In this document: positions 31,276-58,952 of the stretch, piece after piece
Layout: every line of letters begins with the position of its first letter
Numbering within the stretch: position 1 is the stretch's first letter
Source: Candidatus Moraniibacteriota bacterium
GTDB taxonomy: Bacteria; Patescibacteriota; Minisyncoccia; Moranbacterales; DUUL01
Assembly (NCBI GenBank): GCA_041583775.1
Contig: JBFHFF010000002.1
Location: forward strand, 64,274-128,273
Length of the DNA: 64,000 nucleotides
Reading direction: 5' to 3'
Position numbers and translations under genes: made by a program
Notes under the pieces: generated by a model
The model's input: only the letters and a program-made list of their open reading frames with translations
What the model was told of the DNA's origin: nothing
Database searches by the model: none

Positions 31276-31338
31276 GGCTCTTTCAAGCCTTAAATTTAAC
31301 CGCACGCCATAGTAAAGGATGTTAGAACTATTTTTATG
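31276..31338. repeat. Intergenic repeat family, copy B: hairpin GGCTctttcaAGCC plus core GCACGCCATAGTAAAGGATGTTAGAACTATTTTTAT
   Basis: See copy A. Confidence 0.5.
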
Positions 31339-31482
31339 AATAAGAAAGAATATGTTTATATTCCGGATTTAAGATAATATAAAAACTATAATTCTTTTTA
31401 GAGAAATAAAAAAATTATATTATTGATAAATAAAGAATAAATTTAAAAAATTAATTTCAATTGAAGACATAATTAATTCTTC

Positions 31483-32986: not shown

Positions 32987-33046
32987 ACCCTTGAAAGGGT
33001 ATTTTATTTGCACGGGGTCGTGAAGGATGTTAGAACTATTTTTATA
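32987..33046. repeat. Intergenic repeat family, copy C: hairpin ACCCTTgaaAGGGT plus core GCACGGGGTCGTGAAGGATGTTAGAACTATTTTTAT
   Basis: See copy A. 22 of 22 identity with copy B over GGATGTTAGAACTATTTTTAT. Confidence 0.5.
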
Positions 33047-33250
33047 AAAAGAAGTGACCCTCTTTTTATTCCAAATTCAAAGAATATTTAGTCTATATGG
33101 TCTGTTTTTTAATAAATTTAAAAGATAAACCTACTTTTATAAAAAATATCGACTTCTCTTATAAAAACTTCCCTTAAAGTTACCTAAACCCTCCTTATAC
33201 AAGTAAATTCCCTTGTATTAGCCAAAATAACGACTTCCCTTATCTTAATG

Positions 33251-34711
33251 CTAACTTCTCTTAATTGAATATAATGCATTTATATCACGTTTTTTTGTGG
33301 TATTTTTTTCCAAAACATCCATTAGACAAAATTTGTTAAGATATCCTCTTATGACTTTATCACTTTTAGATAGGCTAATACTCAACTGTCCAACTGTGGC
33401 ACCATTGCTCGCCAAAATATACGACAATATTTCTATTTCTGTTTCATTCAAGTGTTTCCACATCGATTCAACCTTTTTCATCACAATCTCTGGGATAGCT
33501 TTTTCGTGATCTGCTATCTTATTCCTAAGTATAAGAGTAACTGTATTGTTTCTATCATAATATTTTGGCTCTGCCAACATTGATTTTTCCATCGATTCAA
33601 AAATACGAGAAACTCCTTCATTTAATTCTCGTACAAGTCCCAAATCCGACAACACTCGTGCTACTCTTGGATTCCTAGAAAATCTCTCTTCTCTTATGTT
33701 TTCAACTGTAACCTGAGCTGGCAAAGGTCCACTATTGGATATTTCCAAACGATCATCAAAATGTTTTATATAGATACAATTTCCTTGAACATTATACGAA
33801 CGATGGCAAAGAGCATTAACCAACCCCTCAAGCCACGCTTCTTCTGGATATTCAGAAATCTTTACAAATCGTCCCTTCTCTACATCTAAATAATAATAAT
33901 CTCTTAATGAGGCATAGATAAATTTCTGGAGATCCCTTGCAAGAAGTGGAATACATCCCTCAAAACGTTCGTCTTTGATAACGTTGTGATCCACTCCTGT
34001 CTTTGCCACCACTCCATCATAACGTATGTATCTAGCGCACGATGACGGAATATACTTATCGGGATTTTTTGCAAAAAGAAGAACGGCTGAGTTTTTATAA
34101 ACCACCTCATTTCCGTCTCTGATAGCTAGGTTCCTACTGAGAAGAAGTTCCTTGTAATCACCCTCAAATTTAAGCTGCTTCTTATAAAATTCTAGGGTTT
34201 TTTCTTCAAAATCATTAGTGTCAAAGTCTTTCCTAGGTTCATCTTCAAAGCTTCTTATTTCTCTGTCATATTCCAATTTACGGACCTCTTCTCTGGTCAA
34301 TGGACCTTTGTTTGAGTCTCCTATCCTTATATAAACATCTTCATTATCTTTTCTGCAAAATACTCTTTCGTAATCCTGTTCTATGTGATAAATAAATAGC
34401 AACTCACCAGAATCCAAAATTACTTCCTCAAGCTCTACATTCGCTGGAGGAGCTATAAAATCAAAACAAATTTTACGATACCGATCGATTAAATTAGTAT
34501 TCATTGTTTTTAAATCTTGAACACCATCTTGTTCAGAAACACCCACTACTATAATCCCGCCGTCAGCATTAAGCATTCCAATTATCTCATTAGCAAGCTT
34601 TGTGGGTTTCAATCCAGATTCCTCAATCCCTTTTCTCTCGAAATACTGTCCTTCTACTTTTTCTATTAGATACTCTACAGTTATTCTTTTATCTATTTTA
34701 GAAATACTCAT
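33251..34711 (-). CDS. Schlafen/AlbA_2 domain plus HATPase_c_4 plus C-terminal wHTH protein (so-called RecG-like putative regulator/ATPase)
   Basis: KLANEIIGMLNADGGIIVVGVSEQDG (AlbA_2). ALCHRSYNVQGNCIYIKHFDDRLEISNSGPLP (HATPase_c_4). Confidence 0.7.
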   Translation of the reverse strand: MSISKIDKRITVEYLIEKVEGQYFERKGIEESGLKPTKLANEIIGMLNADGGIIVVGVSEQDGVQDLKTMNTNLIDRYRKICFDFIAPPANVELEEVILDSGELLFIYHIEQDYERVFCRKDNEDVYIRIGDSNKGPLTREEVRKLEYDREIRSFEDEPRKDFDTNDFEEKTLEFYKKQLKFEGDYKELLLSRNLAIRDGNEVVYKNSAVLLFAKNPDKYIPSSCARYIRYDGVVAKTGVDHNVIKDERFEGCIPLLARDLQKFIYASLRDYYYLDVEKGRFVKISEYPEEAWLEGLVNALCHRSYNVQGNCIYIKHFDDRLEISNSGPLPAQVTVENIREERFSRNPRVARVLSDLGLVRELNEGVSRIFESMEKSMLAEPKYYDRNNTVTLILRNKIADHEKAIPEIVMKKVESMWKHLNETEIEILSYILASNGATVGQLSISLSKSDKVIRGYLNKFCLMDVLEKNTTKKRDINALYSIKRS

Positions 34712-35491: not shown

Positions 35492-35782
35492 AATTTTGTT
35501 TGATTGCTCGTCCGCAGGGCTATTTGACAGATTAATGCCTTAATTGTAACACAGGAGTTTTCATATTACACTAATTTATATAAAAAATAGCTAACAAAAA
35601 CACTTTGGAAATCCACACCCAGCGATGGATACTATAACCATTTTTATTGGAAAAGAAGGGAATGGTTATATTTAAATATCAATCTCTTTAATTCAATTTT
35701 GTTTGTTTTGAATTTCTAGAAGGAATATATTCCAAAACCTTTTCGACCTCATTGACTGTTGCATCTAGGTCAAACTCCCCAT

Positions 35783-36631
35783 CTATTTTTTCACTCTCTG
35801 AATCAATTTTATTTTTAATACGTCCGTGAAATGAAGTCTTATTTTGTTTTCTCTATATTTTTCCAAAAACTCTTCATCTTTTATGGTTGCTTTTATAATC
35901 TGGTCTCCTTTACCACCCAACCTAAACGACCACTGCCTTGGGTCAGCGTCAAAACTTCCTCTTTTTGGACTTACAAAAATTTCCATCTCCGTTTTAACCT
36001 CTTCTTCTACTGCTAAGGAAGGTATTTCTGCTTCTGAATAATTTCTAAAACTTTCTACATCACCTTTGTTAAAAGTAACTTTTGTTTCTTCTTCTTCCTT
36101 TTGTAAATAACAATCTATACTTTCTACGTTATCTCCTTCCAATGGTAGACCATATGAATTATAAACAAATTTTTGTATATTATTGTTCGAAAATAATTGA
36201 TGAGTTCTACTGCCAACTACAAAAGCATTACCCTCTTCATTTGTGTATCTAATCTCATTAGGCTTTAGTTGCTCCACTGTTTTAGGCTTCCCTTTTAGTT
36301 TTTTTATTAACCAAAATAGACTTCCTCCTCCTCCAGTAATTAACCCTACCCACTCAAGCAGCTCCTTTATATCCTTTGTGCTATCCTTATTTATTAAATC
36401 TAATATTCCTTGACAATTATTTTGAGCAAACAATACAATATCAACAATAAAAGAGCCTTCCCTAAAAGGTTTTATGTTAACAGCGACCTCCCTACCATTA
36501 GGATTTAAAATTTTATTGCTCTCTTTTATCAGCTCGCCGAGGGATAACAATACTGGTGCTAACTCGAAAACATCCAATCCACAATCAATATTCTTGCCAT
36601 CTAACCGATAAATAAAATTAACCTTTTTCAA
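35783..36631 (-). CDS. Hypothetical protein (downstream neighbour of the RelA/SpoT-fusion gene)
   Basis: 282 aa; no motif. Confidence 0.45.
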   Translation of the reverse strand: MKKVNFIYRLDGKNIDCGLDVFELAPVLLSLGELIKESNKILNPNGREVAVNIKPFREGSFIVDIVLFAQNNCQGILDLINKDSTKDIKELLEWVGLITGGGGSLFWLIKKLKGKPKTVEQLKPNEIRYTNEEGNAFVVGSRTHQLFSNNNIQKFVYNSYGLPLEGDNVESIDCYLQKEEEETKVTFNKGDVESFRNYSEAEIPSLAVEEEVKTEMEIFVSPKRGSFDADPRQWSFRLGGKGDQIIKATIKDEEFLEKYRENKIRLHFTDVLKIKLIQRVKK

Positions 36632-36669: not shown

Positions 36670-36847
36670 ATTATACACGATTTTTATCAATAAATCTTTC
36701 TATTTCACCACCCTTGTTCCGCTCATCTATCTTCAAGAGTAAATCGAAAAAACCAACGAAATTACTTTTAGACTCAGAGACCTCTTTATCAGTTAATTTT
36801 TTTCCACTTAATTTTTCATAAAACTCTTTGTTGCTTTTTTTATTCAT
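36670..36847 (-). CDS. Small hypothetical protein (about 58 aa) between the RelA/SpoT-fusion gene and 35783-36631; not in the ORF track. Coordinates are approximate (plus or minus 1-2 nt at the 3' end)
   Basis: Hand translation gives MNKKSNKEFYEKLSGKKLTDKEVSESKSNFVGFFDLLLKIDERNKGGEIERFIDKNRV. Confidence 0.3.
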
Positions 36848-36935: not shown

Positions 36936-39900
36936 TTATTTTTCAAATTCAAGTTTTCTTAGTTTAATTCCCTCTTCCTCTTTCTTCCTTTGTTCATCTG
37001 CCATTTCGTTTAAATTTTCAATCATTTTTATGGCAAATCTGCTAACCCTATCTTCGGCTGAATCCAGATATTTTTCTAAAGAACTGGCTTTATTTCTTAA
37101 GCTATCAGAAAAACCATACTCACCAGAAACTACGCCAGTTTTATGCATAAGAGAAGCAACCCTGTTTAAAATCTTTTCATCATCAGTTCTCTTAACAATT
37201 TCAAAACAAATTTCAAATGATGGAACGCTAACCGTTCTTAAAATATCAACCGCATTTGCCAAACTTTTAGCATCCCCTTTTTCGATAATATTTTTCAATA
37301 CTTTATCAAAAGATTTATCTATTTTTTCTATAAACTGCCCTAACTCCCAATTATATATGCTCCACTCCTTTGTCATCTTCTCTGACCATTTTCCGATATA
37401 ATTAATATATTCGTCATTTTTACTTATATATTCGGCAAGATTCTCATTAAAATTAAACGGAATAGCTTCATAATGATGCAGTCCTAATCGCTTCTTTGGT
37501 TTCTCTTTTTGTGCCCTTTTTATCCTATTTAGAATAAGCTCCATAATTGAGTCGAAATTCTTTTTTTCCATATTAAGAAGAAGTTCTTGGGCGTCACAAT
37601 TAAAATCTTCTATTTCGACCAACTTACTCAAAATATACTTTTTAGTTTCTGTCCTAAACTTTGAACAATCAATTGATTCTCTAATCTCCATATGGTGCAA
37701 CTCTCGTATAAAAAAACCTGGCATTAATGGGTTTTTTTCGATTTCAGAAATAAACAATTTTTCAATCACCTTAGGGTTCTTTGCGTGAATGCTTGAGAGG
37801 CCTTGCATTAAAGAGGAATGAAAGGCAAATTCATTGACACCCTTCCTTCTCAAAAAACTAAATGTTCTGTCTTTATTTATAGACCTTTGAAATAATTCTA
37901 TGTCTTTTCTTCTTACACCTTTTTTTATCCCCTTTTTATTAATATACAAAAACGAAAGATAGGCATCAAAAAGCTGTTCTGCGGATTTGTTTTTTATAAT
38001 TATGTCTACATATTTGTCCCAAAGTTGAAGGTTATCTTCTTTTCTAAATCCATATAAAAATTGTCCCACAAATTTGAACAGTGGTTTTTTATTTTTAACC
38101 GCATCGTCCAAAATAATTTCGGCTATTTCTGGTTTTTTCTCAGCTAATCGCTGAAGCAAAGAGTTAAATCCTTGAAGTTTCCAACTCTCTTCTTCAACTC
38201 CATATTGCGCCATATCATTCAATATTATTTTCCATTTTTCAACACTTTTCAAGTTTATTTTAGACAAACAAGATGAAATGGTGTCATTCCTTCTCTTTTC
38301 ATATGCTTCGTATTTCTTTTCTTCCTTGTAAACAATGTCACCGATTAGAACCCTATACAATCCATAAAACTCATCTGAACGTATTTTACTTAATATTTTT
38401 TTTATTTTTTCTTCGTTTTCAGTGCCGAGTTTGTCTATCCAGATTAATTTTTCTTCTATTTCCAAAACGATTGGTGATTCAGCTTTAATATTGTCCTGCT
38501 TACCAAAAATGATATCCTCATAAAAATCCATAACGTATTCGAGTTCTTCATAAATGAATTTTCTTCCTTTCTCATCTATATTAGAATGAAAACGAGAAAT
38601 GTTTTCAAGTGTTTCAAGAAGACTAATTTTAGATTTCACATCAACAACCCGCCCGTATAGATTTTTTATTAAATCAATTGCTTCTCTTCGTATCTTTCTC
38701 AATTCTTCACTCGGAACGAGTGGTCCAGAAATCAATGATATGGTGTTCCAATCTCTCATCTCCTGTAACTCATAAGAAAACTCTAGAATTTTACCAAGCG
38801 CTTTGTTTATTATTTTCAAATTCCTTATTTGCTTAGCATTGTCCCATACTAAAATCGTAGCAATTAAATCTTTTTGATACTTATAAAGAAAAGCTACTGA
38901 ATTTTTTCTTTGTCTCAATACCTGATATTTTGAAAAGTTTTTCACAGCATCTAGAATTTTTTTCTCACTTAATCCCATTTCTTCGTATTCGCAAAACTCC
39001 ACGAGAAGATTAAAGGCATTTATAAAATCAGCATTTTTGATTTTGTTAATAATATCTATGCATTTTTCAGCAATATTTATCAAAGTTTTTCCTGGTATTT
39101 CACCTAATATACTTGATTCATTTTTCTTCTTGTTTGTTTTGACTTTATTCATACAGTCCCTTAATAAATCGACTATTTCTTCATTGCCATATCTACCGAT
39201 ATTTACCTCCTCGGTATACTTCTCCAATAACAACAATTCTTGGTAAATTTTATTGTTGTTTTGGGACCTTATATGTTCAGGATTGAATATTGCACGGCCT
39301 TTTTCAAGTTCACCGTACAAATAGGAGATGTTTTCAAACTCAAAACTTGCTTCATTAATGTGCCTTATCATTATATCTTTAAATCTCTCATCCAATATTT
39401 CGAATTCTTTTGGGTATCTCTTTTTCACTTCCTGTGTAGGTTTGTATATAATGTCGTGTTCTAGTTCGGACCAAGCGTGAAACAATGGTGTTGTTAATTG
39501 TATTTCACATTTTAGACCCTTAAATTTTGAATATTCCAATAATCTTAATCTTTCTTCATTAAGACCATTAACAACCAAGTGGATTGCCTTGTAACCATCG
39601 TGCTTTAACTTTCTTTTTATTTTTACATTTAGCAACTCCTTCTCTACTAATTTAGAAAACTTATCAGCTTCACTTTCCAAGTAAAAAATTATTCGTACCC
39701 CAGCCAAATCATCAATATCTGAAAATTTCTTTATACTCTTTTCAATATAATAGACTGAACTTCCTTCTGGTCGCTTTAACTTTTCTTTTAGCTTATATTT
39801 TTCTTTTACTCTATAAGTTATAACTTGAATTTTTGATTTAAGCTTTTTTTCTTCAATTATTTTTTCAATTATCGTTTTTATTGCCAAAGCAAAACTCTCA

Positions 39901-39974
39901 TACAACTTTATTTTTTCATCGTTGTATTCAATCATTATTTGATTCACCCTGTCGTCTGCTTTACGTTTTTTCAT
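36936..39974 (-). CDS. RelA/SpoT-family nucleotide pyrophosphokinase (small-alarmone-synthetase-like) N-terminal domain fused to about 800 aa of uncharacterised alpha-helical region
   Basis: All synthetase-domain motifs are present in the first 200 aa: YRVKEKYKLKEKLKR, DDLAGVRIIFY, GYKAIHLVV, CEIQLTTPLFHAWSELEHDIIYK. There is no HD hydrolase, TGS or ACT domain. Confidence 0.75.
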   Translation of the reverse strand: MKKRKADDRVNQIMIEYNDEKIKLYESFALAIKTIIEKIIEEKKLKSKIQVITYRVKEKYKLKEKLKRPEGSSVYYIEKSIKKFSDIDDLAGVRIIFYLESEADKFSKLVEKELLNVKIKRKLKHDGYKAIHLVVNGLNEERLRLLEYSKFKGLKCEIQLTTPLFHAWSELEHDIIYKPTQEVKKRYPKEFEILDERFKDIMIRHINEASFEFENISYLYGELEKGRAIFNPEHIRSQNNNKIYQELLLLEKYTEEVNIGRYGNEEIVDLLRDCMNKVKTNKKKNESSILGEIPGKTLINIAEKCIDIINKIKNADFINAFNLLVEFCEYEEMGLSEKKILDAVKNFSKYQVLRQRKNSVAFLYKYQKDLIATILVWDNAKQIRNLKIINKALGKILEFSYELQEMRDWNTISLISGPLVPSEELRKIRREAIDLIKNLYGRVVDVKSKISLLETLENISRFHSNIDEKGRKFIYEELEYVMDFYEDIIFGKQDNIKAESPIVLEIEEKLIWIDKLGTENEEKIKKILSKIRSDEFYGLYRVLIGDIVYKEEKKYEAYEKRRNDTISSCLSKINLKSVEKWKIILNDMAQYGVEEESWKLQGFNSLLQRLAEKKPEIAEIILDDAVKNKKPLFKFVGQFLYGFRKEDNLQLWDKYVDIIIKNKSAEQLFDAYLSFLYINKKGIKKGVRRKDIELFQRSINKDRTFSFLRRKGVNEFAFHSSLMQGLSSIHAKNPKVIEKLFISEIEKNPLMPGFFIRELHHMEIRESIDCSKFRTETKKYILSKLVEIEDFNCDAQELLLNMEKKNFDSIMELILNRIKRAQKEKPKKRLGLHHYEAIPFNFNENLAEYISKNDEYINYIGKWSEKMTKEWSIYNWELGQFIEKIDKSFDKVLKNIIEKGDAKSLANAVDILRTVSVPSFEICFEIVKRTDDEKILNRVASLMHKTGVVSGEYGFSDSLRNKASSLEKYLDSAEDRVSRFAIKMIENLNEMADEQRKKEEEGIKLRKLEFEK

Positions 39975-40252
39975 AAAAATTCATCTTTGAAACTTATTGC
40001 CTTAATCATACACCCAGACATTATCTTTACAACCTAACTTAAATTCAAAAAAGTTATAGCCAAAAAATCTCTACTTCTAAAAAAATAAAGGAAAATGAGC
40101 TTTGTTTATAGTCGAATTCTTTGTTCCACCTTTTATAGATCTATATCAAGCAATTGACTAGGATTAGATATAAGATCTACATTAATCAACCTATCAAACG
40201 CTTTTTCTTTTTTCAACACCGCTTTTTCACTTTCAAACGGAAAATCTTCCAA

Positions 40253-40519
40253 CTAAACAAATTCTTGACTAAAATCAATTGCCTCAGTCTTCAATGTCCC
40301 CCAATTCGTTGGTAGAATCCCCTGAAGACACCTAGGAGGCTCCTCTCCTGTCTTTTGCTTGATATGTTCGATAGCTGGGCTTGCGTCTCCCTTGCAGTGC
40401 ATGGTGAGCCAATAACACTTGTGTTTATTCGTTACCTTTTCTAAAAATTCTACTGCGCCAATTGCCCAGTTACCATCTTTAGTAAGAAGAACTCCATCTA
40501 TGTCTAGATATACATTCAT
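40253..40519 (-). CDS. Small HAD-like hypothetical protein
   Basis: N-terminal DIDGVL motif. Confidence 0.35.
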   Translation of the reverse strand: MNVYLDIDGVLLTKDGNWAIGAVEFLEKVTNKHKCYWLTMHCKGDASPAIEHIKQKTGEEPPRCLQGILPTNWGTLKTEAIDFSQEFV

Positions 40520-42535: not shown

Positions 42536-42654
42536 TGATGTTTATTTGAATATGGATACACTTCCAATATACAATCAAAGTTAATTTAGCACAACTAATC
42601 TTATTGTTTTTTGTCTGATATTAAGTTAAATTAGAGTAAATTAAGATTAAAATT

Positions 42655-43473
42655 ATGCAGTCTGCAATCAAATCATTAAAAAGAAGATTCGAAGTTATAA
42701 ATAGCTCCAATGGTAAGAAAACTTTTATTCCAGCCTTGTTTCAGTATTTAAAATTTGCGACCAACAATAAAAAAATTTCACAAATACTAAAAGAATTGGA
42801 GAAAAAGAGGAACAACGAGCTCAAAAAGCTCAATCTTCGGCAACTTCCCTTTTTAGAAGAAACAGAAATTTGGCCCCATTGGGGAAAAATAGAACCAGCC
42901 TTATTATTATCTGGCAAATCATACCACAAGGCTAGTGAAACCTTTTTGGAAGAGAAAAGGAACGATTCAGTCCTTGACTTTCTTCACTTTAGAGCAGGAA
43001 ATAACTCTTTTAATGGAGCGCCTACAAATGAACAACTTGCAAATCTTATGGTAAGTATAAAAATTGTTCACAACTTTTTACTTGATGAACTTGAAAAGGT
43101 TGAGCCAGAAAAAACATTAGTAACGGAAAAAAACGGGGATTTTTATTATAATAACTTTCTGATAAATTTTGGTGAGGGAACACAATATAAAGAGCTTTTT
43201 AAAATAATTTATACCGAATGCAGCAATAGCAAAGAAAGTTTTATATCCTATAAAAAAATAAGCTTATTATTAGACAAAAGAACTAATACAAACGGACCGA
43301 TCAAAAAAACTGACAGGCAATCTTCACAAAAAAAAATCCAAAACTTAATAAGAAACGGCATCTTTAGAACTGGCAAATTAGCAAATAAGAGTAACTTAGA
43401 AAATATAACCCCTTCTGGAAAAAAACTAATTGAGATAATCCGAGGGAAAGGAATCAAATTGAATCAAGGATAA
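42655..43473 (+). CDS. Hypothetical protein
   Basis: 272 aa; no motif. Confidence 0.45.
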   Translation: MQSAIKSLKRRFEVINSSNGKKTFIPALFQYLKFATNNKKISQILKELEKKRNNELKKLNLRQLPFLEETEIWPHWGKIEPALLLSGKSYHKASETFLEEKRNDSVLDFLHFRAGNNSFNGAPTNEQLANLMVSIKIVHNFLLDELEKVEPEKTLVTEKNGDFYYNNFLINFGEGTQYKELFKIIYTECSNSKESFISYKKISLLLDKRTNTNGPIKKTDRQSSQKKIQNLIRNGIFRTGKLANKSNLENITPSGKKLIEIIRGKGIKLNQG

Positions 43474-44643: not shown

Positions 44644-44749
44644 TAACAATTAAGATTAAAATTATGACAATGAAGAAAGAGAAGAGACTAAAAGAAATTG
44701 AAGATGAAATAAAAACAGAAGCCAAAAAAAGATTATACATATTGCTTCA

Positions 44750-46069
44750 ATGATCTTACAAGATAAAACAATTGTTGAAATGGTATTAGACAAAGAAGAA
44801 AATAAAACATATTTTGCTACATATAAAGATAATGAAATAAAAAGAGAAGCAAGTTTGGAAATAGAAGAAAAACTTTTTCTACCCTATCCAGCTGATAAAG
44901 ATTTTCTAACCAACGATGTCATTCTTTTTCCGTCTGCTCCAATAGAGTATGTTGATCAAAAAGAACTGATTAAAGAAATTCAATATTTCGTTCATAAATA
45001 TCTTACTGTCTCTGATTTTTTTGAGAAAATTTGTACTTATTATGTTCTTTTTTCTTGGATTTATGATGATTTTAAAGAGCTTCCTTATTTGAGAGGCTTA
45101 GGAGATTATGGCACAGGGAAATCAAGATTTCTAAAGACAATTGGTTCAGTTTGCTACCACCCAATTTTTACAAGTGGGGCAACGACTGTTTCGCCTATAT
45201 TTAGGATGCTCAACGATTTCAAAGGAACTCTAGTCTTGGATGAAGCGGACTTAAAAATATCAGACACTACAACCGAGCTGGTTAAAATATTGAATTGTGG
45301 TTTTGCTAAAGGGACTCCAGTTCTTAGAAGTGAAGGCAATGGCAAATCCTTCGATGTTAAGGCTTTCCACGTTTTCGGTCCAAAAATAATTGCGACAAGA
45401 AAATTATTTGACGATAGCGCTCTGGAAAGCAGAATGATTACTGAGGATATGAATCAAAATTTTCCAAGAAAAGATATCTTGATTCATATACCCTCTGAGT
45501 TTGAAGAAGAAGCTTTGTGCCTAAGAAATAAACTTTTAATGTTTAGGTTTAGGAATAAGGGAAAATCCTTTATAAAAACTGAATTTGAAGATAGGAGTAT
45601 CGAACCACGCTTAAATCAAATTGCAGTTCCCTTAATGAGTGTTATTGATGATGCACAAACCATAAAAGAGCTTCAAAAATACATAAGGGAGTACAATGAC
45701 ACAATAAAAACAGACCGGACTCTAGATTGTAATTACCAAATATTGGAATCTATTGTTTTGCTTTTAGACAAGGGAAATATGGAACCAACTATCGGTGATA
45801 TAACCAGACAATTTAATGAAAATTTTGATTCTTCAGATACAATAACCCCCAAGAAAATGGGTTACTTATTAAAGAAAACATTAAATTTAAAAACGATAAA
45901 AACAAGAGATGGTTATATCGTTTCAAAAGATAATAAAGAAAAAATTGAAATATTGCGAAAAAGGTTTGGAATTGAACTAATTTCCGACGTTATTAATGAT
46001 GTGAACAATGTGAACAATGTGAACAATGTGAACAATAAAAAAGAAGATGTACAAGAAATAATGTTTTAA
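44750..46069 (+). CDS. P-loop NTPase (primase-associated / D5-P4-like helicase-type), with C-terminal NVNN tandem repeat
   Basis: Walker A GDYGTGKS, Walker B LVLDEAD. Confidence 0.5.
   Translation: MILQDKTIVEMVLDKEENKTYFATYKDNEIKREASLEIEEKLFLPYPADKDFLTNDVILFPSAPIEYVDQKELIKEIQYFVHKYLTVSDFFEKICTYYVLFSWIYDDFKELPYLRGLGDYGTGKSRFLKTIGSVCYHPIFTSGATTVSPIFRMLNDFKGTLVLDEADLKISDTTTELVKILNCGFAKGTPVLRSEGNGKSFDVKAFHVFGPKIIATRKLFDDSALESRMITEDMNQNFPRKDILIHIPSEFEEEALCLRNKLLMFRFRNKGKSFIKTEFEDRSIEPRLNQIAVPLMSVIDDAQTIKELQKYIREYNDTIKTDRTLDCNYQILESIVLLLDKGNMEPTIGDITRQFNENFDSSDTITPKKMGYLLKKTLNLKTIKTRDGYIVSKDNKEKIEILRKRFGIELISDVINDVNNVNNVNNVNNKKEDVQEIMF
45992..46036 (+). repeat. Tandem 9-bp repeat (GTGAACAAT x4, plus a degenerate copy) encoding NDVNNVNNVNNVNN
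   Basis: Direct reading of 46001-46036. Confidence 0.8.
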
Positions 46070-46611: not shown

Positions 46612-48231
46612 ATGGAAACAAAAAAACCAAGGTTACAGTATTTTTTATATGCCAGAAAATCATCCGAGAGCGAAGATCGCCAGGTTCAATCTATCGATGA
46701 CCAAACTGGACGTTTAAAACGATTAGCGCAAGAATTAGGCATAACCATAAAACATATCTACACGGAAGCTAAATCAGCCAAAAAACCTGGTAATCGCCCA
46801 TTTTTTGACAAAATGATGACTGAAATAGAAAGTGGTGAAGCTGATGGCATTCTATGTTGGCATCTTAATCGTCTCTCTAGAAATCCGATTGATAGTGGAA
46901 AGATAAGTTGGCTTCTACAGGAAGGGTCTATCAAATCGATTCAAACAATGGAAAAACAGTTTCTTCCAGAAGACAATGTCTTGCTTTTTAGTGTTGAAAG
47001 TGGAATGGCAAACCAATTTTGTCGAGAACTAAGCACAAACGTAAAAAGAGGTATTCAAAAGAAGCTGGAAGACGGCTGGAGACCTGGTATAGCGCCACAA
47101 GGATATCTAAATGAACTATCTAACCATACAATCATAAAAGACACTGAGAGGTTCAATCTTATAAGGAAAGTGTGGGATTTAATGCTCACTGGAAATTACA
47201 CTGTTCCTCAACTACTAATTAAATTAAATGATGAATGGGGATATAAAACTCCTCTCAAAAAACGCCTCGGCGGTAAACCTTTAACTATAAGTGGTCTTTA
47301 TAAAGTTTTCACTAATTTATTTTATACTGGAATAATTTTGCATAAAGATCAGACTTACCCAGGGAAACACGATCAAATGATAACCCTCGAAGAATATGAT
47401 CAAGTTCAGTTAATATTGGGAAGAAAGGGGAAGCAAAGACCTAAGACTCATAATTTCGCTTTTACTGGAATGATTAGGTGTGGAGAATGTGGTTGTCTTC
47501 ATACAGCCGAAACAAAGAAAAAAATAATCAAAAAGACAGGAACTCTAAAAGAATATACTTATTACCACTGTACGAGAAGAAAAAAAGACATTGATTGTTC
47601 GCAAAGAAAGGTTTTAAATCAAGATAATCTGGAGTTGCAAATCAATGAATTATTAGCTACCTACACGATATTGCCAGAATTTAGAGACTGGGCTTTGGAA
47701 ATTGTTCATAATAGCAAAAATCTAGAAATCGAAGATAAATCAAAAATTCTAGACTCTTTGCGCAATGAATTGCTAAAAGCTGAGGAAAATTTAAACGAAT
47801 TGATTAAAATGAGATACAGAAAATTGATTGATGATAAATTTTTTATTAAAGAAAAAGAGACTCTTCAGATGCAAATATCCAAATCAAAAGAAAAGCTGAA
47901 GAAATCAGGCGGTGAAAAAAATAAACAGTTAGAACTCACGAAAAAAACTTTCAATTTCGCAACATATGCCCGAATAAACTTTAATAAAGGCACATTAGAA
48001 CAAAAAAGAGAAATTCTAGCTGCTTTAGGTTCGAACCATAGAATCACTGACCAAAAACTCTTTGTTGATGCCCATAAATGGTTCCAGCCTATTAGAAAAG
48101 ACTATCCTCGATTGGAAGAAGAATATATAAGGTTAGAACTAAATAAATCTCCCTTAAATAAAGCAAAAAGCGAGCAATTAAGCTCGCTCATTACACGATG
48201 GCACGGGTGGAGAGAATCGAACTCCCGCTAG
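46612..48231 (+). CDS. Large serine recombinase (integrase)
   Basis: N-terminal resolvase catalytic domain FLYARKSSESEDRQVQSIDDQ...LNRLSR. Central recombinase domain and zinc ribbon CGECGCLH...YYHC. The 3' end overlaps tRNA-Trp. Confidence 0.8.
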   Translation: METKKPRLQYFLYARKSSESEDRQVQSIDDQTGRLKRLAQELGITIKHIYTEAKSAKKPGNRPFFDKMMTEIESGEADGILCWHLNRLSRNPIDSGKISWLLQEGSIKSIQTMEKQFLPEDNVLLFSVESGMANQFCRELSTNVKRGIQKKLEDGWRPGIAPQGYLNELSNHTIIKDTERFNLIRKVWDLMLTGNYTVPQLLIKLNDEWGYKTPLKKRLGGKPLTISGLYKVFTNLFYTGIILHKDQTYPGKHDQMITLEEYDQVQLILGRKGKQRPKTHNFAFTGMIRCGECGCLHTAETKKKIIKKTGTLKEYTYYHCTRRKKDIDCSQRKVLNQDNLELQINELLATYTILPEFRDWALEIVHNSKNLEIEDKSKILDSLRNELLKAEENLNELIKMRYRKLIDDKFFIKEKETLQMQISKSKEKLKKSGGEKNKQLELTKKTFNFATYARINFNKGTLEQKREILAALGSNHRITDQKLFVDAHKWFQPIRKDYPRLEEEYIRLELNKSPLNKAKSEQLSSLITRWHGWRESNSR

Positions 48232-48272
48232 AGGTTTTGGAGACCCCTGTACTACCACTATACTACACCCGC
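48199..48272 (-). tRNA. tRNA-Trp (anticodon CCA)
   Basis: The reverse complement folds as a cloverleaf: GCGGGTG/CACCCGT acceptor stem, anticodon loop CTCCAAA, T-loop TTCGATT, 3' CCA encoded. Confidence 0.8.
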
Positions 48273-55560: not shown

Positions 55561-55672
55561 TGTTCTCGGCACCGTCTTACTCTTGCCTTGCGGCTACCAT
55601 CAGCGCTAGAGTGCTTAACTTCTGTGTTCGAGATGGGAACAGGTGTACCCACTCCGCCAAAAGCACCGAGAA
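55561..55672 (-). rRNA. rrf: 5S ribosomal RNA
   Basis: The reverse complement contains GTTCCCATCTCGAACACAGAAGTTAAGCACTCTAGCGCTGATGGTAG, the 5S core. Confidence 0.85.
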
Positions 55673-55834
55673 CAATGTAATCAAACCACAGATATAATAC
55701 TTTATACAAGCACTTTTGTCAATTCTATCAAACAGAAAATTTATTTCTCTTATTTGCTAGTCACATCAACCTAACAAAGAAACTAATACAAGATCAATCT
55801 CAATCGTTAGGTCAAAAAAGTAGAGTTGTAATAC

Positions 55835-58952
<3,118 letters not shown>

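Follow-up and report, generated by a model that had tools for sequence, protein, structure and literature searches.

CapRel (CapRelSJ46; PMC9712102, PDB 7ztb) is a fused sensor and toxic small alarmone synthetase (toxSAS). In type I PANGU systems, the sensor is a nucleoid-associated protein (NAP) and the effector is the GRel toxSAS Pag1B, a pppGpp-making small alarmone synthetase (SAS) that is non-toxic until the sensor activates it (10.64898/2026.04.06.716658). DSR2 is encoded by a single gene, and its one chain of ~1000 amino acids (aa) has SIR2 as its head, MID in the middle, and a C-terminal alpha-solenoid as the sensor of a phage protein (PMC11850899, PMC10981675). Here we describe a gene in a 64,000-nucleotide (nt) stretch of contig JBFHFF010000002.1 from a Candidatus Moraniibacteriota bacterium (this whole stretch is referred to as the window) whose 1012-aa product joins a synthetase domain belonging to the RelA/SpoT homolog (RSH) superfamily to a long alpha-solenoid. 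The explanation that we favor, with slightly better than even confidence, is that this protein is a self-contained, single-polypeptide sensor-effector of a conflict system and is carried as cargo on a serine-recombinase island. The conflict system would most likely be an anti-phage system that acts by abortive infection.

The open reading frame (ORF) starts with an ATG at position 39974 of the window and ends with a stop codon at 36936–36938 on the minus strand, exactly where a first reading of the sequence only had placed it, and because full-length homologs were found, it is a real gene and not a chance ORF. A Pfam scan gave a single match, to PF04607 (RelA_SpoT; 46.4 bits, cut-off 27), and no HD, TGS, or ACT domain was found in Pfam and NCBIfam scans, which bears out the proposal in the sequence-only reading that a synthetase domain lacking these accessory domains is fused to a long C-terminal extension with no recognizable domain. 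The extension, of ~780 aa, matched no family in Pfam, NCBIfam, or PADLOC. No NTPase domain of the NACHT or NB-ARC type was found in these three databases or in an AlphaFold2 (AF2) model of the protein (pLDDT 88.4, pTM 0.70). Family members are named in databases merely as “RelA/SpoT domain-containing protein,” and we found no description of an RSH-solenoid architecture of ~1000 aa in the literature that we searched, in which the coverage of subscription papers was incomplete, so that this absence is no proof. The scans also bear on whether the protein could be a toxin for delivery, polymorphic or secreted, as are Tas1/Apk and the exported alarmone synthetases; its solenoid would then be a delivery or adaptor region. 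No signal peptide-like sequence and no PAAR, LXG, Rhs, or MuF domain was found in the 1012-aa protein, and neither an immunity gene nor secretion-system neighbors are conserved. Polymorphic toxins carry the toxin at the C terminus, whereas the head of this protein is N-terminal, and we consider delivery extremely improbable.

The N-terminal 230 aa are predicted to be a catalytically intact RSH pyrophosphokinase of the RelQ/RelP type. The head passes the profile threshold, adopts the synthetase fold, and carries the catalytic motifs of the RSH synthetase superfamily: it keeps R55/K57, D89xxG92xR94, G-Y128-xxx-H132, E157-x-Q159, and H166..E170..H173..Y177K178. In this superfamily, RxK...K serves the ATP phosphates, DxxGxR and ExQ serve Mg2+, and the G-loop motif GYxxxH serves the acceptor base. 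In FaRel2, the residues that serve the donor ATP, Mg2+, and the acceptor base are R64, K66, K74, R77, D90, and Y128 (PMC11782079); their positional equivalents here are R55, K57, K65, R68, D89, and Y128, to which E157 and Q159 can be added. We counted conservation in 192 collected family proteins, with the ~170 members that bear the head as denominators. R55 (169/170), K57 (170/170), D89 (171/171), R94 (170/171), E157 (172/174), and Q159 (174/174) are essentially invariant, and Y128 is present in 157 of 172 members, with Phe in 11 others. K65, G92, and H132 are also more than 97% conserved. This degree of conservation at the catalytic positions argues that the enzyme is under selection to work. 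The sequence-only reading had credited the domain with every RelA/SpoT catalytic motif; the motifs are indeed present and conserved, but the Arg of the canonical EIQIRT motif is replaced by T, Q, or H throughout the family, and an invariant Cys precedes the Glu.

The closest relatives of the head appear to be SAS of the housekeeping type (RelQ/RelP and stand-alone proteins of the candidate phyla radiation [CPR]) and not CapRel. The similarity of the head to RelQ/RelP was 1e-16, compared with 1.6e-6 for CapRel, and the alignment with CapRel covered 178 of 344 CapRel residues, in the head only. Stand-alone proteins of ~208 aa at eight loci (L059, L067, L070, L072, L073, L074, L076, and L079, mostly at ~10.0–10.6 kb) matched the head over its full length (213–252 bits, ~40%–46% identity). 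These proteins are 73%–87% identical between different CPR genomes (Moraniibacteriota/Paceibacterota) and have no conserved neighbor, and the genes that adjoin them include those for a GreA-like factor and a signal peptidase. By this profile they look like housekeeping SAS and not like the toxin of a toxin-antitoxin (TA) pair, and these reduced CPR bacteria may use them as their native alarmone synthetase. The same head was also observed in what would be a third architecture: a 760-aa protein from a Syntrophaceae metagenome-assembled genome (L069:2334-4616) has it at the C terminus (aa 552–755), behind ~550 aa of unidentified sequence.

The likeness to RelQ/RelP and to the stand-alone CPR proteins leads us to favor a purine nucleotide as the acceptor, with (p)ppGpp or (p)ppApp as the product, an assignment to which we give about an even chance; synthesis of a nucleotide alarmone is on these grounds at least as likely as modification of tRNA. 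Pyrophosphorylation of the tRNA 3′-CCA end, as carried out by CapRel and FaRel2, is a possible but doubtful output. Alarmone synthetases have a large electrostatic acceptor patch, and tRNA modifiers a small one (PMC11782079). The same kinship keeps alive a physiological role, in which the protein would be a regulated, non-immune “long SAS”: the solenoid would be a scaffold through which the enzyme docks onto a host machine or a stress sensor, and the protein would tune physiological (p)ppGpp, thereby functionally replacing the regulatory C-terminal domains of Rel/RelA. RelQ/RelP are non-toxic, the CPR proteins are conserved, unpartnered, and located among housekeeping genes, HEAT solenoids are typically protein-protein scaffolds, and no antitoxin or immunity gene accompanies the family, all of which fit such a role. 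We nevertheless regard it as unlikely, for reasons that lie in the C-terminal part of the protein and in the distribution of the family.

The C-module is a separate, faster-evolving alpha-solenoid module. Mean pairwise identity was 46.5% in the catalytic core and 26.3% in the C-module, within which aa 231–420 and 701–830 are the most variable and aa 831–960 the least; the latter stretch is the second most conserved region of the protein, after the catalytic core. It contains the YxAIP motif, which ends at residue 839, and the TGVVSGEYG motif, which spans residues 945–954. In the segment at aa ~281–420, identity to three homologs (P0003–P0005) was 29%–35%, compared with 54%–56% in the catalytic core, and analysis of the AF2 model with DSSP placed beta-hairpins at aa 286–293, 351–363, and 399–418. 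A fold search with the solenoid returned generic HEAT proteins only (TM 0.2–0.28), and a search of viral folds in BFVD returned nothing specific. We rejected an apparent likeness of aa 482–828 to OloA of Olokun (E 0.0011) as a chance match that recurs in only 1 of 48 members.

The C-module is also found behind a different enzyme. One relative, P0052 (1027 aa), aligned to aa 239–969 (E 7e-39), and its N terminus is a DUF4365 domain. P0166 is another relative with a DUF4365 head. When 1.84 billion cluster representatives (clusters at 50% identity) were searched exhaustively with a profile, the top 150 representatives listed all scored above 660 bits, and almost all of them were 950–1040 aa long; in nine of the 150, the C-module began at residue ~285–337. 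Seven of these alternative-head representatives were tested, and six had a DUF4365 head, with no Pfam match in the seventh. Several representatives of 729–790 aa contain nothing but the C-module; some of them may be fragments. In SPARDA short-Argonaute immune systems, DUF4365 serves as the collateral nuclease effector (PMC10810196, PMC12205087). The C-module thus occurs behind either an RSH head or a DUF4365/DREN nuclease head, and it keeps its motifs (R817, YxAIP, TGVVSGEYG, and F980) with either one: across members with either head, R817 is present in 186/187, P839 in 185/186, G951 in 184/185, and F980 in 183/186.

Exchange of heads is the hallmark of sensors that have interchangeable effectors, and the DUF4365 swap is the strongest single argument for the sensor-effector explanation, because exchange of a nuclease and an alarmone synthetase on one scaffold typifies the sensor modules of conflict systems. 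It lends support to the earlier suggestion that the enzymatic head is fused to a C terminus that regulates or senses, and it argues against the physiological role described above, since a nuclease head on the same C-module would make no sense for alarmone homeostasis. A more specific view, which we hold only tentatively, is that the solenoid (~750 aa) is a new pattern-recognition module, found across bacteria, CPR among them, and archaea, Asgard-related lineages among them, that directly binds an invader-derived ligand and switches on interchangeable heads (an alarmone synthetase or a DREN nuclease).

The family is large and sparsely distributed. The closest homolog identified in a word-indexed search, P0002, is a full-length protein of 1014 aa with 63% identity, and ~50 further full-length relatives were found in the same search, with dozens at 25%–40% identity. 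The profile search gave 2,426 matches at E ≤ 1e-30 and 12,941 at E ≤ 1e-3, the latter including generic RSH enzymes. A scan of 185,579 species genomes, with one genome per species, identified 178 relatives, and our locus analyses used the best 80 of these 178. The bacteria among the best 80 belong to the Patescibacteria/CPR (the closest, ~33%), Nitrospirota, Alpha-, Beta-, and Gammaproteobacteria (genera including Legionella, Bradyrhizobium, Mesorhizobium, and Paraburkholderia), and Bacilli, and the archaea belong to the Methanosarcinales, Bathyarchaeota, Thermoplasmata, and Promethearchaeota. Culturable carriers of family members include Bacillus cereus (P0039), Sutcliffiella horikoshii (P0033), Legionella parisiensis (L015), and Bradyrhizobium retamae (L080). 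In tblastn searches, 57 of the 80 loci gave full-length matches; we rejected the idea that the “short” matches represent truncated proteins, because the profile shows that most are full-length with diverged C-terminal halves.

De novo clustering of 3,799 flanking ORFs from the 80 loci revealed no conserved neighbor, in the full set or in the 57 full-length loci; this is not a core gene in a fixed context, a finding that would have spoken against the sequence-only reading. The largest flanking cluster (LexA/UmuD-like) was present in 9 of 80 loci, where neither its distance nor its orientation was constant, and other recurrent clusters comprised response regulators, kinases, tyrosine integrases, SRAP, UmuC, and serine recombinases. 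The 147 nearest neighbors fell into 128 Pfam families, of which the commonest were DNA methylases, S24 peptidases, HTH_3, SRAP, integrases, Eco57I/MmeI, ResIII, PLD nucleases, and HipA. A complete type I restriction-modification operon (HsdM-HsdS-HsdR) precedes the P0002 gene by 91 nt on the same strand, and a large serine recombinase and an excisionase-type helix-turn-helix gene lie 1.8 kb from the gene for P0003 (40%). At the P0002 locus (L081:2831-12205), the RSH-solenoid gene is fourth after the Hsd genes and is followed by an FtsK/SpoIIIE-like gene and then by a 72-aa gene that resembles the 58-aa ORF of the window (see below); this run of genes may be a compact defense or mobile cassette. 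A sparse, cross-domain spread, a genomic context that is not fixed, and the placement of the gene described here and of its two closest homologs on recombinase islands or beside type I restriction-modification genes all argue against a non-immune alarmone synthetase.

The same contexts raise the possibility that the protein is a fused TA (addiction) module that mainly stabilizes the mobile island, with a toxic head that would be set free once the element is lost or the solenoid proteolyzed. The island that holds the gene is integrative and encodes a serine recombinase and a primase-like protein, homologs of the gene adjoin recombinases, integrases, and FtsK-like genes, and the single-gene layout, with its catalytic head intact, suits a fused TA system. 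A well-folded 780-aa “antitoxin” that is fused to its toxin is, however, poorly suited to differential instability, many members are located in long chromosomal contigs with no recombinases nearby, and the rapid divergence of the solenoid fits the recognition of a changing ligand better; we therefore consider an addiction module decidedly unlikely.

The sequence-only reading had proposed that the 58-aa and 282-aa ORFs downstream of the gene are its cognate antitoxin or partners. Both ORFs exist on the same strand, and the three genes are co-directional with gaps of 88 nt and 39 nt, which would fit a multi-gene toxSAS with one or both small proteins as antitoxin or partner. An ORF similar to the 58-aa ORF (43% identity over 46 aa) is also found downstream of the P0002 gene. 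The co-occurrence data largely refute this explanation, which we consider very improbable. In tblastn searches of the 80 homolog loci, the 58-aa ORF, the 282-aa ORF, and six other neighbors from the window gave zero or one match each. The 282-aa ORF is absent from all 80 loci and from L081–L083, and it belongs to an independent family: it matched NCBIfam NF053583 (LAPAL; 154.7 bits, cut-off 60), PADLOC PDC-S42 (1e-40), and phrog_3243 (1e-35), its homologs are 315–330 aa long with up to 71% identity (Candidatus Magasanikbacteria), and no RSH gene was found at the loci of those homologs. The gene is also frameshifted: its last ~40 codons (…KIDGEFDLDATVNEVEKVLEYIPSRNSKQTKL) align in another frame, past the annotated stop, to about position 35694, and the break is a pseudogene mutation, a sequencing error, or a programmed shift. 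The 58-aa ORF matched no family in Pfam, PADLOC, NCBIfam, or PHROGs. Its counterpart at L081 lies beyond the FtsK-like gene, none of the other full-length loci has one (57 loci), and another is found in L076, 5.7 kb from a stand-alone SAS; we read the 58-aa ORF as a lineage or island-backbone gene and not as a component of the system. The RSH-solenoid gene has no obligate partner, and a toxSAS with neighboring antitoxins is the wrong description of this locus.

In the mechanism that we propose, the solenoid would hold the head inactive in the resting state, so that no antitoxin would be needed. A trigger, which could be a phage protein or another infection cue, would bind to the variable surfaces of the solenoid (aa ~231–420 and ~701–830) and would thereby release or assemble the head. 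The head would then move pyrophosphate from ATP to its acceptor, and the growth of the infected cell would be arrested. The swappable heads, the sparse cross-domain spread, the lack of a conserved neighbor, the mobile and defense contexts, the fast evolution of the C-module, and the existence of precedents support a sensor-effector of this kind.

Several observations weigh against this explanation. The family-wide loss of the EIQIRT Arg means that the chemistry may differ from that of known SAS, and the housekeeping-looking SAS among the kin of the head indicate that the head is not intrinsically of a “toxin” lineage. Because the solenoid matched only generic HEAT proteins, its sensing role is argued from architecture and not from homology. 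Enrichment of defense genes around the family is modest and, as it was counted without a background rate, suggestive at most, and only four members with the C-module were found on predicted viral or prophage contigs. The case is nonetheless stronger than that of a singleton, as the family is large and modular. The coordinates of the features discussed are collected in the table.

Table. Features of the RSH-solenoid gene, its product, and its surroundings, in window coordinates
Feature	Position	Strand	Remarks
RSH-head/alpha-solenoid fusion gene	36936..39974	-	Complete ORF, 1012 aa; full-length homologs; AF2 model
Head, aa 1-230	39285..39974	-	Two N-terminal helices, RelA/SpoT synthetase core, long connector helix at aa 188-229
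PF04607 match, aa 55-180	39435..39812	-	Catalytic residues R55, K57, K65, D89, G92, R94, Y128, H132, E157, Q159
C-module, aa 231-1012	36939..39284	-	Discrete conserved unit, mostly HEAT/ARM-like alpha-solenoid; putative sensor/regulatory part
Mixed alpha/beta segment, aa ~281-420	38715..39134	-	From DSSP on the AF2 model; one of the two stretches that diverge most
Conserved C-terminal block, aa 831-960	37095..37484	-	YxAIP (P839), TGVVSGEYG (G947, V949, G951, G954); flanked by R817 and F980
Two overlapping sigma-70-like promoter matches	40005..40048	-	In the 278-nt gap upstream of the ATG; consensus matches only
58-aa ORF, probably outside the system	36671..36847	-	88 nt downstream of the RSH-solenoid gene
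LAPAL/PDC-S42 gene, outside the system	35694..36631	-	ORF as listed 35783-36631, 282 aa; frameshifted near 35785
Island end: large serine recombinase and tRNA-Trp	46612..48231; 48199-48272	+; -	3′ ends overlap by 33 nt

The island that carries the gene is a segment of ~15 kb (about 33.1–48.2 kb) bounded on the right by the serine recombinase, whose overlap with tRNA-Trp suggests that the island was inserted into the tRNA gene, the end of which it supplies. Beside the recombinase is a gene for a primase-type CHC2 zinc-finger protein, and the cargo comprises a Schlafen-type protein, the LAPAL/PDC-S42 gene, several orphans, and the RSH-solenoid gene; the proposal of a tRNA-Trp-associated island with defense-like genes is thus upheld. 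The Schlafen-type protein (33251–34711, minus strand; 486 aa) has an AlbA_2 domain (aa 20–135), HATPase_c_4 (aa 310–395), and a winged-helix-like C-terminal tail; it matched the PADLOC pAgo model over aa 18–408 (2e-40) and is a candidate defense gene of the island. Ordinary genes lie on both sides, including those for NUDIX, cation efflux, and MinD/ParA-ferredoxin proteins to the left and those for a HAD hydrolase, L1, L11, NusG, and 23S/5S rRNA to the right. Base composition does not mark the island, and no direct repeat of the attachment-site type that matches the tRNA-Trp end was found on its other side, so the left border rests only on gene content. We rejected a prophage as the source of the island, as PHROGs gave only a primase-type match and no structural genes.

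Several short sequences in and around the island were also observed. Four perfect tandem copies of the 9-mer ATGTGAACA (45999–46034), at the 3′ end of a 439-aa orphan ORF and beside the primase-like gene, are possibly iterons or a binding site for the recombinase or a replication protein. An exact 19-nt repeat, AATTAAGATTAAAATTATG (42639–42657 and 44648–44666), ends in ATG at both sites, the first of which starts a 272-aa ORF, and resembles an element for translation initiation or regulation that is shared within the island. An imperfect 78-nt direct repeat (31295–31372 and 33003–33080; 72%) with the conserved core GGATGTTAGAACTATTTTTAT flanks the NUDIX region immediately to the left of the presumed border and could be linked to the left attachment site. 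The promoter matches upstream of the RSH-solenoid gene are weak, and promoter-like sites in the region are not enriched (27 found, 42 expected). Upstream of the gene, an 88-aa ORF (40253–40519, minus strand) resembles an N-terminal fragment of a HAD hydrolase by weak Pfam and NCBIfam matches; its counterpart (57% identical; L076:2359-2625) is at the Moraniibacteriota locus that also holds an ORF similar to the 58-aa ORF, which hints at an island backbone shared among CPR genomes. Elsewhere in the window, the 23S and 5S rRNA genes (55564–58944, minus strand) include a 23S of 3122 nt, compared with 2925 nt in the model, which likely reflects an insertion, and no 16S gene was found in the remaining 5 kb upstream of the 23S, which is protein-coding. 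Such an unlinked arrangement of rRNA genes is common in CPR and other reduced genomes.

If the sensor-effector explanation is correct, a large cross-domain family (thousands of sequences, in which three-quarters of the protein has no Pfam domain) would join the single-protein immune receptors and would bring with it a sensor module that is new and whose effectors can be swapped. This would be a second, independent wiring of RSH enzymes to infection sensing, after the zinc finger of CapRel and the NAP of PANGU, and would provide a tractable case in which to distinguish alarmone synthesis from tRNA modification as the output. Few candidate defense systems are native to CPR/Patescibacteria, whose immunity is little understood, and this would be one of them. 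If, further, the solenoid is a pattern-recognition module, the protein would be the first single-chain immune receptor with an alarmone burst ((p)ppGpp or (p)ppApp) as its output, in which stringent-response chemistry is linked directly to pathogen sensing without an antitoxin, an NTPase, or a partner. Should its role instead be physiological alarmone synthesis, the protein would establish a new “long” RSH class with a non-canonical regulatory region.

Several described classes do not accommodate the protein. Long RSH enzymes have HD plus TGS/ACT domains and are encoded by near-universal, vertically inherited core genes; none of these domains is present, the gene is not a core gene, and we rejected this identity. 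We likewise rejected a STAND/Avs-type receptor, as there is no central P-loop NTPase, and the PADLOC candidate PDC-S33, of which only profile positions 43–175 of 349, corresponding to the RSH core, matched (E 7.5e-13), a partial pattern that is alike in 40 of 48 relatives. The toxSAS TA families (FaRel, FaRel2, PhRel, PhRel2, and split CapRel) were rejected because there is no cognate antitoxin gene and no pseudo-Zn-finger domain; instead of a bi- or tricistronic arrangement, the 57 full-length loci have no conserved neighbor, and the neighbors at the closest loci differ. RelQ/RelP (YjbM/YwaC; PDB 5dec, 6ewz, 6fgk) are stand-alone homotetramers of ~210 aa that act in housekeeping or stress, whereas the head of the window protein is joined to a module of 780 aa, has a sparse distribution, and has no EIQIRT Arg. 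CapRel, which modifies tRNA, is ~370 aa long and ends in a small pseudo-Zn-finger antitoxin domain, whereas the window protein ends in a 780-aa alpha-solenoid; no C-terminal likeness to CapRel was detectable and no pseudo-Zn-finger domain was found.

With the DREN-APAZ/short pAgo proteins of SPARDA the window protein shares only the DUF4365 effector, and this only through the alternative head of its sister proteins, which lack APAZ and Argonaute (PMC10810196). With PANGU it shares an alarmone-synthesizing SAS as the effector of abortive infection, and this precedent makes a “housekeeping-like” head compatible with immunity; PANGU differs in having two genes, a trans-acting NAP, and a DNA-mimic C-domain on the effector, whereas the window protein appears to be fused, and no NAP gene was linked to the family by clustering of flanking ORFs or among nearest neighbors. 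DSR2, to which we found no homology (there is no SIR2 domain, and neither profile nor fold searches gave a match), has the same design and size, namely a single gene, an N-terminal enzymatic effector, and a C-terminal alpha-solenoid, and the likeness is one of design only. We conclude that the single-protein sensor-effector design is known and that what would be new here is the use of an RSH head and this solenoid module within it.

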